From IMG/VR virus record IMGVR_UViG_3300029814_000010, positions 1-29,322 of that record: 29,322 bases of DNA. One strand, written 5' to 3'. The number at the start of each line of letters is the position of its first letter. Within the stretch, counting starts at the first letter, position 1. Source of the DNA: a virus. The position numbers and the translations under genes were made by a program. The notes under the pieces were generated by a model. The model was given only the letters and a program-made list of their open reading frames with translations. It was not told the DNA's origin and did not search any database. Positions 1-4,013 of this stretch are shown piece after piece.

Positions 1-103
1 AAGGTTCGAGTGACTAGTGAAACCATCGTTATTTTATGGAAATTATAGAGCGTTTTAGTAACCTTCATTTCAAATAAGGACACTAAAATTCTTGATTGAG
101 CAT

Positions 104-135
104 AAAAAAAAGACTTGGCAGCATGAGCTACCAAG
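104..135 (-). terminator. Intrinsic terminator (minus strand)
   Basis: Minus-strand read: CTTGGTAGC-TCAT-GCTGCCAAG (9-bp stem, 1 mismatch) followed by a run of 8 T. Confidence 0.6.
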
Positions 136-235
136 CGACATGAAAAACAAAAACATTCGGCACGTAATCGCCTAAAGTACATCTATAGTGTACCTTTATT
201 TAGATTAAATGTCTAACGATTTATCACGAATACAC

Positions 236-259
236 AAAAAGGCTAGGATAACCCTAGTC
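236..259 (-). terminator. Weak hairpin plus T-run just after the stop of the 183-aa gene
   Basis: CTAGG-GTTAT-CCTAG core stem starts 3 nt after the stop at 262-264 and is followed by TTTTTG on the minus strand. The stem is short. Confidence 0.4.
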
Positions 260-261
260 TT

Positions 262-813
262 TTAACGGATATTCTCTAAATTATTTTCAATCCACTCAAG
301 TCGATTTTGGCGACCTGCTGGTATCGGCTCTTGGCTTCGTGAATAGTCTTTAAATCTCATTTGCAACATGTACTCACCGCCACCGATAGAGCTGGATTCC
401 AATGCAATTTCTAAATAAGCACTAGAAATCCAATTACCGCCCGCTGTGTACATTCTGCCAGCACCTCCGATGATGTCATCATGGCTGTTTTCAAGCCATT
501 TTAAGAGTTGCTGTTTTTTGAATTGATCATAATAGGCATAAAACGGCATATTCATTTTTAAAGAATTATCCATGTAGTAATCAATTTGAGTCTTACCAAT
601 CATGGCAAGTTCAAAATCATCAAACAAGCAGTCGAGCATTGCATTTACTCGTGCCGCTCCCATCTTTTCAATAGAAGTATCCCCATTTTTGAATTTTTGC
701 CAATTGGCGTCAGTAAACTTAATATTAGGAAGACGGTAGAAGTCGTTTTCAAATTTAAAATAACGCCCTACGTATTCTAAAATTAGGTCTTTGATGTCGT
801 TGTTGATAATCAT
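262..813 (-). CDS. Hypothetical 183-aa protein, second gene of the post-lysin cassette; no family recognised with certainty
   Basis: Long ORF. I prefer the ATG at 813 (MIINNDIKDLILEY...) because AAGGAG lies 7 nt upstream. The track start at 840 lacks an SD. Confidence 0.8.
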   Translation of the reverse strand: MIINNDIKDLILEYVGRYFKFENDFYRLPNIKFTDANWQKFKNGDTSIEKMGAARVNAMLDCLFDDFELAMIGKTQIDYYMDNSLKMNMPFYAYYDQFKKQQLLKWLENSHDDIIGGAGRMYTAGGNWISSAYLEIALESSSIGGGEYMLQMRFKDYSRSQEPIPAGRQNRLEWIENNLENIR

Positions 814-824
814 GTTTATTCTCC

Positions 825-1160
825 TTACGCTACGTCCCAAACTTTTTCAGAAATATAGTAAGTACCAATGTTAGAACCGTCAGCTACTACTTCGATACCG
901 TAGTAAGCACCAATTTTGTGCATTACTTCGTTGAATTTAACCACTTTAGCACTGTCTAGCACTTCAACCATTGACCATTTGCCAGATTTACGCATTTTAG
1001 CTTCAACTGCTTGGAATTTAGCAAGGCTAGTGTCACTATCTTTGATAGCAGCCCACGCCATTTTCATTGCTCCTGCGATGTATTCAATAGCTTTACCGCC
1101 GAATTTTTTAGCAGCTTCTTTTGAAATTTCCCAAGCGTTTGTCATAAGTTCTTTTTTCAT
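825..1160 (-). CDS. Hypothetical 111-aa protein, first gene of the post-lysin cassette
   Basis: ORF with SD AAAGGGAG upstream of the ATG at 1160. The N-terminus is helical (TNAWEISKEAAKKFGGKAIEYIAGAMKMAWAAIK). The stop lies 11 nt before the next start. Confidence 0.8.
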   Translation of the reverse strand: MKKELMTNAWEISKEAAKKFGGKAIEYIAGAMKMAWAAIKDSDTSLAKFQAVEAKMRKSGKWSMVEVLDSAKVVKFNEVMHKIGAYYGIEVVADGSNIGTYYISEKVWDVA

Positions 1161-1193
1161 GGTTCTTACTCCCTTTCTTTATCTTACATGTAT

Positions 1194-1222
1194 ATTATAT
1201 ATCATATATGATAGTTTGTCAA
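1194..1222 (-). promoter_or_regulatory. Consensus sigma-A promoter driving the 111-aa/183-aa cassette
   Basis: Minus strand reads TTGACA (1222-1217), an exact 17-nt spacer, then TATAAT (1199-1194). The spacer contains the perfect palindrome ATCATATATGAT (1201-1212). Confidence 0.7.
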
Positions 1223-1254
1223 CGCTTTTGATAAAGAAATTTAAGTTTTTTTGT

Positions 1255-1285
1255 AAAATAAAAAAGCCCGGCGCAAAGTCGGGGC
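1255..1285 (-). terminator. Intrinsic terminator (third of a stack)
   Basis: GC-rich imperfect hairpin GCCCCGAC-TTTGC-GCCGGGC followed by TTTTTTATTTT on the minus strand. Confidence 0.5.
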
Positions 1286-1362
1286 AGTTCAAGAAATTTA
1301 TCGAAATGACGCCAAGCATTCCGAAATCTATGTTATCACTTATCTATTGAAATCACAAATAT

Positions 1363-1393
1363 AAAAAAGAGCTATGAGACTAACTCATGGCTC
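1363..1393 (-). terminator. Intrinsic terminator (second of a stack)
   Basis: Minus strand: GAGCCATGAG-TTAGT-CTCATAGCTC (9 of 10 bp) followed by TTTTTT. Confidence 0.7.
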
Positions 1394-1415
1394 TTTGCCT
1401 ATGATGGATAGATAT

Positions 1416-1424
1416 ATTATAGCA
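1416..1424 (-). promoter_or_regulatory. Extended -10-like element (TGCTATAAT) between terminators
   Basis: The minus strand reads TGCTATAAT. No convincing -35. It could be chance in AT-rich DNA. Confidence 0.25.
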
Positions 1425-1427
1425 AAT

Positions 1428-1454
1428 AAAAAAAGCCCCAGCAAATGCCGGGGC
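1428..1454 (-). terminator. Strong intrinsic terminator closing the late/lysis operon
   Basis: Minus strand: GCCCCGG-CATTTG-CTGGGGC (7 bp including one G-U) followed by TTTTTTT. The G-U pair makes it minus-strand specific. Confidence 0.8.
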
Positions 1455-1549
1455 TTCGACCACTACTGCCATTGTATCCCTACTGCAGTCTGAGGGGAGG
1501 TGATATACTCCTTTTATTTTATTTTGTTTCGTGGTCTGTTATTTACAGT

Positions 1550-2296
1550 TTAAGCGAATGAACCGAACGACGTTACACGGCGGCCATTCTCTGATTGCCC
1601 AACTGCGACATAGCGACGATTTCCAGACCAGCTAATGTAGCTAATCCAGATATAGCCGTCAACGTCACACCAACCGTCATAGTTGATAGTTTCACCAGCT
1701 CCATAGACTGCCACGATTTCAGCACCTAAACCAGCGCCAGCTCGAACATTAAGAGCTGAGACTTCAACTGTGAATGTTCCGATTTCTTCGTTAATAGTAA
1801 TTATACCATCGAACGGGGTCGGAGTTGGTGCAGGAGCTTGTGATTGGTTGTCTGTTGGGAAGTAGAACCAGCCTACAATACCGTCAAAATTGCGTGTATT
1901 GTAACGAGCAGGACCACCAACATACAAGCTATCAGCGTTGCCGTCAATATTCTGCTCAATTGTTCGCATGGTATAGCCGTCTGAATCTTCGATAACCAGA
2001 CCAGTGTGTCCGTATGAATGCCCTGCGATGTAAGTAGTATCCATGACGAATACAGCCCCACGACGTGGACGACTGTCAAGGTTTCCCACTTGGTTATACT
2101 CGATTTCATAGCCCGCTGCTGCCGCTGAGTTTAGCAAGTCAATAGCGTTGCCCCAAAGGGCACGACCAAAGAAGTTAATTGAGATAGAGTTAGGCAGGTC
2201 AACGCATTGTGTCCCCCAACTTCCATCTGCATCGGTACCAATCCCAGCATTAGCTAGGTCTTCTGCAAATTGAATGATGTCGTTATCTGTTGCCAT
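1550..2296 (-). CDS. Endolysin, N-terminal CHAP domain plus C-terminal SH3b cell-wall-binding domain
   Basis: Catalytic-Cys context WGTQCVDL and downstream His (SYGHTGLV). A PAPTPTP linker follows. The SH3b-like tail is ALNVRAGAG...VDGYIWISYISWSGNRRYVAVG. Start moved to ATG 2296 (SD GGAAGGA), one nt from the holin stop. Confidence 0.9.
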   Translation of the reverse strand: MATDNDIIQFAEDLANAGIGTDADGSWGTQCVDLPNSISINFFGRALWGNAIDLLNSAAAAGYEIEYNQVGNLDSRPRRGAVFVMDTTYIAGHSYGHTGLVIEDSDGYTMRTIEQNIDGNADSLYVGGPARYNTRNFDGIVGWFYFPTDNQSQAPAPTPTPFDGIITINEEIGTFTVEVSALNVRAGAGLGAEIVAVYGAGETINYDGWCDVDGYIWISYISWSGNRRYVAVGQSENGRRVTSFGSFA

Positions 2297-2297
2297 A

Positions 2298-2594
2298 TTA
2301 ATATCCTTCCTTGTCGTTTCGTGGTTCGTGGTAGCCCAATGCTTGTTCGCTGTCTCCAAGACCCTTGGTTGTTGGATCTGGAATGATATTTAAGATGTTT
2401 ACAATTGTCAAACCTACTAAATAAGGGTTTGAGACAAACTTGCCAAACAAGTTGAACACCGCATCCCAGCTTGTGATATCTTCGAACTTGATACCAAAGT
2501 AAGCCAAGATGGGTAGTGCAATCGCAAGCGCCACACGATACAAGAACGCTTTATTCTTTGAGTTAAAACGTACAGACCAGTTAATTTTATTCAT
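2298..2594 (-). CDS. Holin, phi-LC3/Phage_holin_1-like
   Basis: 98 aa. It has the MNKINWSVRFNSKN N-terminus, two hydrophobic helices and the signature IPDPTTKGLGDSEQALGY. It sits directly upstream of the lysin. Confidence 0.85.
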   Translation of the reverse strand: MNKINWSVRFNSKNKAFLYRVALAIALPILAYFGIKFEDITSWDAVFNLFGKFVSNPYLVGLTIVNILNIIPDPTTKGLGDSEQALGYHEPRNDKEGY

Positions 2595-3241: not shown

Positions 3242-3601
3242 TTATTTTGGGTCTTCGGTATTGCTTGGAATACTGTCAGATGGATTGAATGACGGGCGAA
3301 CACGTATTTTAAATTCATCCGTCGGGAAAATAAACCCATCTAGTTTTAATTCCAACTTGTAACGACCAGGATCTACAGCGTCTTTGAATTTGAAGTTGAA
3401 ACGACCTGATTCTACAGATACATCTTCATACAGAATTACTTTTTTCGCATTGAAGATGGCAAGCTTACCTGCGCCAGATAAGTCTTTCTTCAAGCCGTCA
3501 TCGCCCAAAATCTCAAATTCAAATACTGATGCAGTGTCTCCCGATTTAATTACACACCCGCCGTCAACTTGCCTAATGCTTGTCATGACATCATTAATCA
3601 T
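3242..3601 (-). CDS. Hypothetical phage protein (119 aa), probably beta-rich
   Basis: ORF overlapping the stop of the upstream holin-like gene by 8 nt. No family recognised. Confidence 0.7.
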   Translation of the reverse strand: MINDVMTSIRQVDGGCVIKSGDTASVFEFEILGDDGLKKDLSGAGKLAIFNAKKVILYEDVSVESGRFNFKFKDAVDPGRYKLELKLDGFIFPTDEFKIRVRPSFNPSDSIPSNTEDPK

Positions 3602-4013
3602 TCTCGTCGGTCTCCTTTAGATAAAACTTCTCTTTATCAATATTCCTCTTTACATACTTGTCAATAAAAGGTATTTCCACTCCTAACGCTGATAGACTAG
3701 CCAAGATACTAGAAGTGTAAGCCGCAATCATGGAAAAAATGAATGCATCAACAATGCTCGTCAGATTCATGAAATTTGCGAATGGATAGAATATTGCCAC
3801 GAACACAATCATTACTGTATGGCTGATTGCCCCTTTACGAAATTTTGCACTTGAAAGTTCGTGAGCAGCCCAAGCTCTGGACACACCCACGGCAACGTCT
3901 GAAAAAATGATTATGACGAGGAAAAGTACCCATGGATGCTCATCGATACCATGCGCATAAAAGTCTCGGACGACATCAAAGAGCCCAAAGATTCCGTCTG
4001 GTTTCTGTGCCAT
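3594..4013 (-). CDS. Holin-like membrane protein (Phage_holin_4_1 / toxin-secretion holin-like)
   Basis: 139 aa from ATG 4013 (SD GAAGGAGAA; TAATG overlap with the upstream stop). It has 3-4 hydrophobic helices, and FSDVAVGVSRAWAAHELSSAKFRKGAISH resembles the family core. Confidence 0.65.
   Translation of the reverse strand: MAQKPDGIFGLFDVVRDFYAHGIDEHPWVLFLVIIIFSDVAVGVSRAWAAHELSSAKFRKGAISHTVMIVFVAIFYPFANFMNLTSIVDAFIFSMIAAYTSSILASLSALGVEIPFIDKYVKRNIDKEKFYLKETDEND

Follow-up and report, generated by a model that had tools for sequence, protein, structure and literature searches.

A predicted AcrIIA6 anti-CRISPR gene in a two-gene operon of a temperate Streptococcus salivarius phage

Organization of the locus

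The window (the whole stretch of viral DNA analyzed here) is 29,322 nt long and corresponds to positions 1 to 29,322 of IMG/VR record IMGVR_UViG_3300029814_000010. On its minus strand, read 5' to 3', the lysis module is followed by a terminator, a promoter, gp111, acrIIA6, and a further terminator, at these positions:

1 to 48, plus strand: 3' end of a large serine recombinase (integrase) gene, comprising the last 15 codons and the stop, identical here to two related contigs (L002 and L006)
61 to 71, no strand assigned: attP crossover region, where phage-form and integrated-form contigs diverge between 65 and 66; minus-strand core ...GAAATG
113 to 136, minus strand: strong intrinsic terminator that closes the operon, with a 10-bp stem and T8 (-16.5 kcal/mol, z = -4.2)
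243 to 257, minus strand: weak hairpin and T-run immediately 3' of the acrIIA6 coding sequence, perhaps acting as a leaky terminator (-7.6 kcal/mol, z = -1.3)
262 to 813, minus strand: acrIIA6 coding sequence, 183 aa, from the ATG at 813 through the stop codon (264 to 262, included); identified from the ORF and its translation and from PDB, PHROG, and Pfam matches
821 to 826, minus strand: Shine-Dalgarno motif AAGGAG of acrIIA6, read from the sequence, 7 nt from the ATG
825 to 1160, minus strand: gp111, 111 aa, first gene of the operon (Pfam PF07410, Phage_Gp111, E = 1.8e-25; PHROG 8487)
1194 to 1222, minus strand: perfect sigma-70 promoter, TTGACA-17-TATAAT, matching 12 of 12 consensus positions and the sole perfect match in the scan
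1432 to 1457, minus strand: strong terminator after the lysin gene (-20.5 kcal/mol, z = -4.7)
1553 to 2296, minus strand: endolysin, last gene of the lysis module (Pfam CHAP, 6e-12; SH3_5, 1e-9)
2301 to 2594, minus strand: Phage_holin_1, by domain match
3597 to 4013, minus strand: Phage_holin_4_1, by domain match

The original prediction had described a 183-aa ORF at 262 to 813 with an ATG backed by a Shine-Dalgarno motif. This holds, and we add the strand (minus), which had not been given. Two observations support the ATG at 813 as the start: the motif lies 7 nt upstream, and the first residue aligns with the first residue of AcrIIA6 from phage D1811. The motif (826 to 821) overlaps the TAA stop codon of gp111 (827 to 825). 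The ORF listing runs the frame up to a TTG at 840, for a total of 192 aa; this start was rejected, as it lacks a Shine-Dalgarno motif and the homologues all begin at the ATG. Two antisense ORFs on the plus strand (586 to 780 and 602 to 739) were set aside as spurious overlaps of a conserved gene. The ORF itself is not a chance product, given a full-length phmmer match to a solved protein (E = 1e-104).

A strong promoter in front of the gene had also been predicted, and there is indeed one. It precedes gp111, however, and acrIIA6 is the second cistron. At the other end of the operon, none of 200 shuffled sequences was as stable as the terminator at 113 to 136. The terminator at 1432 to 1457 insulates the acr operon from late transcription. 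Together, gp111 and acrIIA6 form an insulated two-gene operon with a constitutive-looking promoter of its own, and this operon is the last transcription unit before attP (or attR, in the integrated form).

The slot downstream from the lysis module is as predicted, with the holins and the CHAP/SH3_5 lysin upstream of the gene. The two holins belong to different families, and four small ORFs annotated without function lie between them, upstream of the lysin. The order of lysin, gp111, and acr is the same in phages Sfi11, Sfi19, P7602, and SA-TP2 and in more than 30 viral contigs, and it agrees with the slot published for the family (lysin, conserved gene, then acr; PMC6060171). Both the size of AcrIIA6 (183 aa) and its position after the lysin, as given in the original prediction, are correct according to the literature and the related loci.

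Between the lysin gene and gp111 is a 390-bp spacer (1161 to 1549, minus strand) that contains one strong terminator and two to three weak, tandem terminator-like hairpins. No convincing ORF was found in this spacer, which looks like the remains of exchanged cassettes. In phage DT1, its counterpart holds an internally deleted gp111 remnant (L056, at about 2180 to 2270). An Rfam search over positions 1 to 1700 of the window returned nothing near the gathering scores.

The gp111 family is confined to Streptococcus and occurs in 111-aa and 114-aa forms. It corresponds to the “conserved gene” that served as the guide in the discovery of AcrIIA6 (PMC6060171). Searches of PDB, NCBIfam, and PADLOC yielded no match for gp111, an AlphaFold2 model built with 29 homologues is of low confidence (pLDDT 54.8), and a literature search on gp111/PF07410 found nothing. 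The homologue in phage P7602 (ARU14016.1, “orf1”) is toxic in E. coli, and for this reason its anti-CRISPR status was left open (Song et al. 2022; PMC8934645). Possibly, gp111 is an anti-CRISPR as well.

Integration site and host

Several contigs carry the identical acr gene. L002, L006, and the window are in phage form, with the recombinase gene next after the acr operon; the full gene, present in L002, encodes 480 aa with Resolvase, Recombinase, and Zn_ribbon_recom domains. In those in integrated form (L003, L004, L005, and L007), the sequence runs instead into comGC, comGE, comGF, a methyltransferase gene, and acetate kinase. To locate the attP region, the phage-form sequences (the window, L002, and L006) were aligned with two copies integrated in comGC (L003 and L007). 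The flanking acetate kinase, methyltransferase, and glutamyl aminopeptidase of the integrated form are exact S. salivarius proteins, from which it follows that the element is a temperate phage of S. salivarius with comGC as its integration site. Carriage of acrIIA6 by a temperate phage agrees with the finding that acrIIA6 occurs in nine of the 12 temperate S. thermophilus phages known at the time and acrIIA5 in the other three (PMC6060171).

Insertion in comGC (comYC) was seen at seven loci (L003, L004, L005, L007, L014, L024, and L026). Gene callers report a chimeric phage::ComGC ORF at the junction (e.g., MLPSLFYAQSRILVSLIEMLVV...), apparently without the normal prepilin leader, so that competence is probably disrupted. 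A 2025 review lists prophage insertion in comYC for S. pneumoniae, S. mutans, S. parauberis, and L. lactis; S. salivarius is not in its list.

When genome contigs were searched with the acr protein, only mitis-group genomes were recovered and none of S. salivarius. In these mitis-group chromosomes (L049 to L055; S. pseudopneumoniae, S. oralis, and Streptococcus sp. F0441), AcrIIA6 homologues with 80% to 83% identity stand behind the same promoter, some of them without gp111 in front. Dairy phages are therefore far from the only carriers of the AcrIIA6 family. One cluster is labeled as a “Staphylococcus sp.” MAG (P0101), and here we suspect a binning error.

Membership in the AcrIIA6 family

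In the original prediction, AcrIIA6 identity was a guess from size and context, and a pairwise alignment with the D1811 protein was proposed as the check. We ran this alignment. Residues 1 to 183 align with residues 1 to 183 of AcrIIA6 from D1811 without gaps, and 152 of the 183 residues are identical (83.1%). A phmmer search against all PDB chains matched AcrIIA6 only (crystal structures 6EYY and 6EYX and Cas9 complexes 6RJ9, 6RJA, and 6RJG; E = 1.1e-104), and PHROG 4964 covers residues 1 to 183 of 183 (E = 1.9e-114). The guess is thereby supported. Identity within the family ranges from 76.5% to 100% over 48 alleles (Hynes et al.; PMC6060171). At 83% identity to D1811, above the 76.5% family minimum, the protein therefore lies inside the AcrIIA6 family.

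The identical protein is on record in 34 blocks of a metagenome collection. It is named “hypothetical protein” there, and it carries a precomputed assignment to Pfam PF28149 (AcrIIA6). Our local Pfam-A copy, NCBIfam, and PADLOC gave no match for the 183-aa protein; for PF28149, the precomputed annotations are the only source. When 5.8 billion proteins were searched, 151 clusters came back, and among the 120 of 151 listed, the proteins are 171 to 191 aa long and at least 78% identical. The named relatives among these 120 are called AcrIIA6, Acr-like, or gp183, several of them being AcrIIA6 according to NCBI. Deposited phage genomes include 138 records with a homologue, all of them Streptococcus phages, and the best of these homologues is a gene annotated as AcrIIA6 in S. 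salivarius phage SA-TP2 (88% amino acid identity).

Homology, profile matches, length together with the N-terminal ~59 residues, and genomic slot all place the protein in this family. Going by its sequence, the gene is a full-length AcrIIA6 family member of a temperate S. salivarius phage.

The AcrIIA6 fold runs alpha1 to alpha7, beta1 to beta4, and alpha8, with a helix-turn-helix (HTH) domain, and the protein is a homodimer. AlphaFold2, run on the 183-aa protein with a 36-sequence alignment, gave a low-confidence model (pLDDT 43.9) with a predicted order of helices and strands that is compatible with this fold. The family offers too little depth (its members are at least 78% identical), and the predicted fold is taken from the 83% identity to the crystal structure.

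Proposed function and the Cas9 interface

We think it very probable that the gene encodes an AcrIIA6 inhibitor of a CRISPR1-type Cas9, with the canonical function, in the gp111 operon of a comGC-integrating S. salivarius siphophage. In outline, gp111 and acrIIA6 would be transcribed from the dedicated consensus promoter between the lysis module and attP. The protein would then dimerize through its N-terminal HTH domain, as AcrIIA6 is known to do (PMC6060171). AcrIIA6 binds the protein–RNA surface of St1Cas9–sgRNA with its beta2–beta3 hairpin (residues 119 to 133) and the L8 (142 to 148) and L9 (156 to 171) loops, and it reduces DNA binding through an allosteric effect, without blocking the DNA site itself (PMC9953297; PMC8632846). 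By homology, the same hairpin and loops would insert here into the WED/PAM-interacting surface and the guide-RNA stem-loop of a CRISPR1-type (St1Cas9-like) type II-A Cas9. Binding of target DNA by this Cas9 would be lowered allosterically, and the phage or prophage genome would thereby be protected from spacer-directed cleavage.

Two sets of residues bear on this proposal. First, deletion of the first 59 residues leaves AcrIIA6 unable to inhibit interference, these residues being needed for dimerization (PMC9120153). They are present and conserved in this allele, and residues 1 to 75 are the most conserved part of the family. Second, 11 of the 15 published contact residues (listed in PMC8632846) are identical to those of D1811, among them N83, R120, Y122, A124, N127, G146, Q151, G167, R168, and N170. 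The differences at contact positions are N81M, T118A, Y128W, A130S, and S147E. A hydrophobic residue at 81 is tolerated, as I81 is found in DT1, an allele with full activity (PMC6060171). The other four (T118A, Y128W, A130S, and S147E) are unlike every tested allele that we found in the literature. Those alleles (D1811, D1024, DT1, and D3288) all come from dairy S. thermophilus phages.

Given these differences in the contact positions and in the tip of the hairpin, affinity for dairy St1Cas9 could differ from that of the tested alleles. One reading is that this allele is a specificity-shifted AcrIIA6, in which the hairpin of the oral clade (A118, W128, S130, and S131) and E147 in L8 are tuned to the CRISPR1-type Cas9 of S. 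salivarius or other oral streptococci, or to escape variants of St1Cas9. Against the dairy St1Cas9 that defined the family, such an allele might have little or no activity. The pattern of variation lends this some support. Across 36 alleles, the Cas9-contacting segments (119 to 133, 142 to 148, and 156 to 171) are the most variable part of the family, with a mean column entropy of 0.65 versus 0.38 elsewhere (Mann-Whitney p = 0.008), as would fit an arms race with Cas9. The hairpin tip is GNWISS in metagenomic, S. salivarius, and mitis-group alleles, this one included, which separates them from the named dairy alleles with G(N/S)YIAN; no member of the GNWISS sub-clade is among the tested alleles found in the literature. 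Furthermore, St1Cas9 variants at 993/1008/1010 escape AcrIIA6 (PMC8632846), and the interface is therefore under reciprocal selection. However, the contact residues are for the most part unchanged, the replacements Y128W and A130S are conservative, and one S. thermophilus allele (P0058) already has W128. Also, D1811, D1024, and DT1, which are 92% identical to one another, all inhibit St1Cas9 fully when expressed from a plasmid (PMC6060171). On balance, we regard retuning of this kind as possible but rather doubtful. A measurable shift would in any case be compatible with the canonical function (the two are not mutually exclusive), and to this weaker form we give a similarly tentative standing.

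Returning to the canonical inhibitor, this allele likely inhibits Cas9, and its likely Cas9 specificity is likewise taken from the family. A literature search for an St1Cas9-type Cas9 in S. salivarius found nothing.

The promoter element and possible autoregulation

In the operon promoter, a perfect 14-bp dyad, TATCATATATGATA (1200 to 1213), with the pattern TATC-N6-GATA, takes up the spacer. The promoter/leader element as a whole reads TTGACAAACTATC-N6-GATATATAAT-ATACATGTAAGATAAAG and shows striking conservation across 56 loci, which come from S. thermophilus, S. salivarius, and mitis-group streptococci (seven mitis-group loci of the 56 were found via the protein, not via the promoter). Over ~75 bp (1165 to 1240, minus strand), it is better conserved than the genes that it drives. 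The leader also contains a second, partial inverted repeat, CATGTAAGATA (1180 to 1190).

What stands between the promoter and acrIIA6 varies: gp111 or its 114-aa variant, gp111 and AcrIIA25 (P7602), an 87- to 103-aa protein, a 59- to 60-aa acidic protein, or nothing. This phage has the minimal version, with gp111 alone. Both this gap and the region just 3' of acrIIA6 form a cassette hotspot (L010 to L016, L019, L021, L024, L026, L036, L039, L040, and L046). In P7602-like phages, the hotspot holds AcrIIA25 (96 aa). Elsewhere, it holds small proteins without a match to any tested Acr, including those of 87 to 103 aa (“MATYKEYKQGLKEQRER...”) and the very acidic ones of 59 to 60 aa (“MALTQEQINQLVKEY...”), as well as proteins of 72 aa, 93 aa (acidic), 102 aa, and 140 to 143 aa. 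These small proteins are natural anti-defense candidates. A BLAST search for AcrIIA5 in the related loci gave no match, but the query was an unverified sequence, so the result carries no weight for absence.

AcrIIA1 and AcrIF24 are self-regulating HTH anti-CRISPRs that follow an Acr/Aca fusion logic. A comparable dual role, in which the AcrIIA6 HTH dimer would also repress its own promoter through the spacer dyad, is tempting because this dimer has had no assigned role since the structure was reported in 2018 (PMC6060171). In the crystal, it superimposes on operator-bound C.Esp1396I, and AcrIIA6 binds DNA in vitro, although the published binding was not sequence-specific (PMC6060171). The dyad is perfect in this operon, and in L053 both half-sites are changed (TATCTT..AAGATA) with the symmetry kept. 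However, it is imperfect in most mitis-group loci. The promoter and dyad outdo the genes in conservation and stay with acrIIA6 where gp111 is replaced or absent (L016, L026, L029, L046, and L049 to L051), and no separate HTH gene was seen in the acr operons of the related loci. Against this, the same promoter and dyad occur at three loci without acrIIA6 downstream (L023, L024, and L047). Because of these three loci, and because a literature search for AcrIIA6 autoregulation found no report, we consider self-repression improbable. We rate as unlikely to about the same degree the joint reading, in which the dimer would repress the acr promoter via the dyad and the oral sub-clade (A118/W128/S130/S131) would also differ from the dairy alleles in its Cas9 specificity.

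Finally, the family does include truncated, interference-dead alleles (phage 123; PMC9120153), but that this ORF is a decayed, nonfunctional remnant or no real gene is highly improbable, as nothing in it supports decay: it is full length with no frameshift or truncation, has a good Shine-Dalgarno motif, promoter, and terminator, keeps the invariant family positions, and recurs as an identical protein in the 34 metagenome blocks.

Comparison with known anti-CRISPR loci

Publications already cover AcrIIA6 as a family, with its structure, mechanism, and genomic slot, and a close S. salivarius homologue already bears the AcrIIA6 annotation. What is new is modest: the non-dairy hairpin sub-clade gains an allele, and this allele is carried by an S. 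salivarius phage that inserts in comGC. Beyond annotation, the importance of this ordinary find is small. It does place an anti-CRISPR of dairy phages on the same promoter cassette in temperate phages of a human commensal, S. salivarius, with relatives in mitis-group genomes. The allele could serve as a natural variant for mapping AcrIIA6–Cas9 specificity or for controlling St1Cas9-type editors, and phage-resistance or probiotic engineering of S. salivarius based on type II-A CRISPR should expect this inhibitor.

One comparison is with AcrIIA1 and AcrIF24. Like AcrIIA6, they are dimeric HTH anti-CRISPR proteins with a palindrome in the promoter of their own operon, but they have no sequence similarity to AcrIIA6. 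Furthermore, the dyad described here is found at loci without acrIIA6 as well, and autoregulation by AcrIIA6 is only putative. The AcrIIA25/AcrIIA24 loci of Streptococcus phages (Song et al. 2022; PMC8934645) share the promoter-driven cassette site. In P7602, AcrIIA25 lies between gp111 and acrIIA6, whereas the window has no cassette there and represents the two-gene minimum.

The closest deposited phage gene is acrIIA6 of SA-TP2 (PQ571305.1, XPO97352.1), with 82.7% identity at the nucleotide level. SA-TP2 shares the gp111–acrIIA6 pair, the promoter, the W128/S130/S131 hairpin, and the host species. However, its own integrase, encoded beside the acr operon, is different (annotated as the tyrosine-recombinase type), and its lysis and structural modules are unrelated to those of the window at the nucleotide level.

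The reference for the family is AcrIIA6 of D1811 (PDB 6EYY; complexes 6RJ9, 6RJA, and 6RJG; Hynes et al. 2018; Fuchsbauer et al. 2019). The two proteins have the same length and align without gaps, the N-terminal HTH/dimerization region and most of the Cas9/sgRNA contact residues are conserved, and in both cases the gene follows the lysin, downstream from a gp111-type gene. They differ by 31 substitutions, including N81M, T118A, S125G, Y128W, A130S, N131S, S145G, and S147E in or near the Cas9-binding hairpin and L8. The phages differ too: D1811 is a virulent dairy phage, whereas the gene described here is carried by a temperate S. salivarius phage with a serine recombinase and an integration site in comGC.
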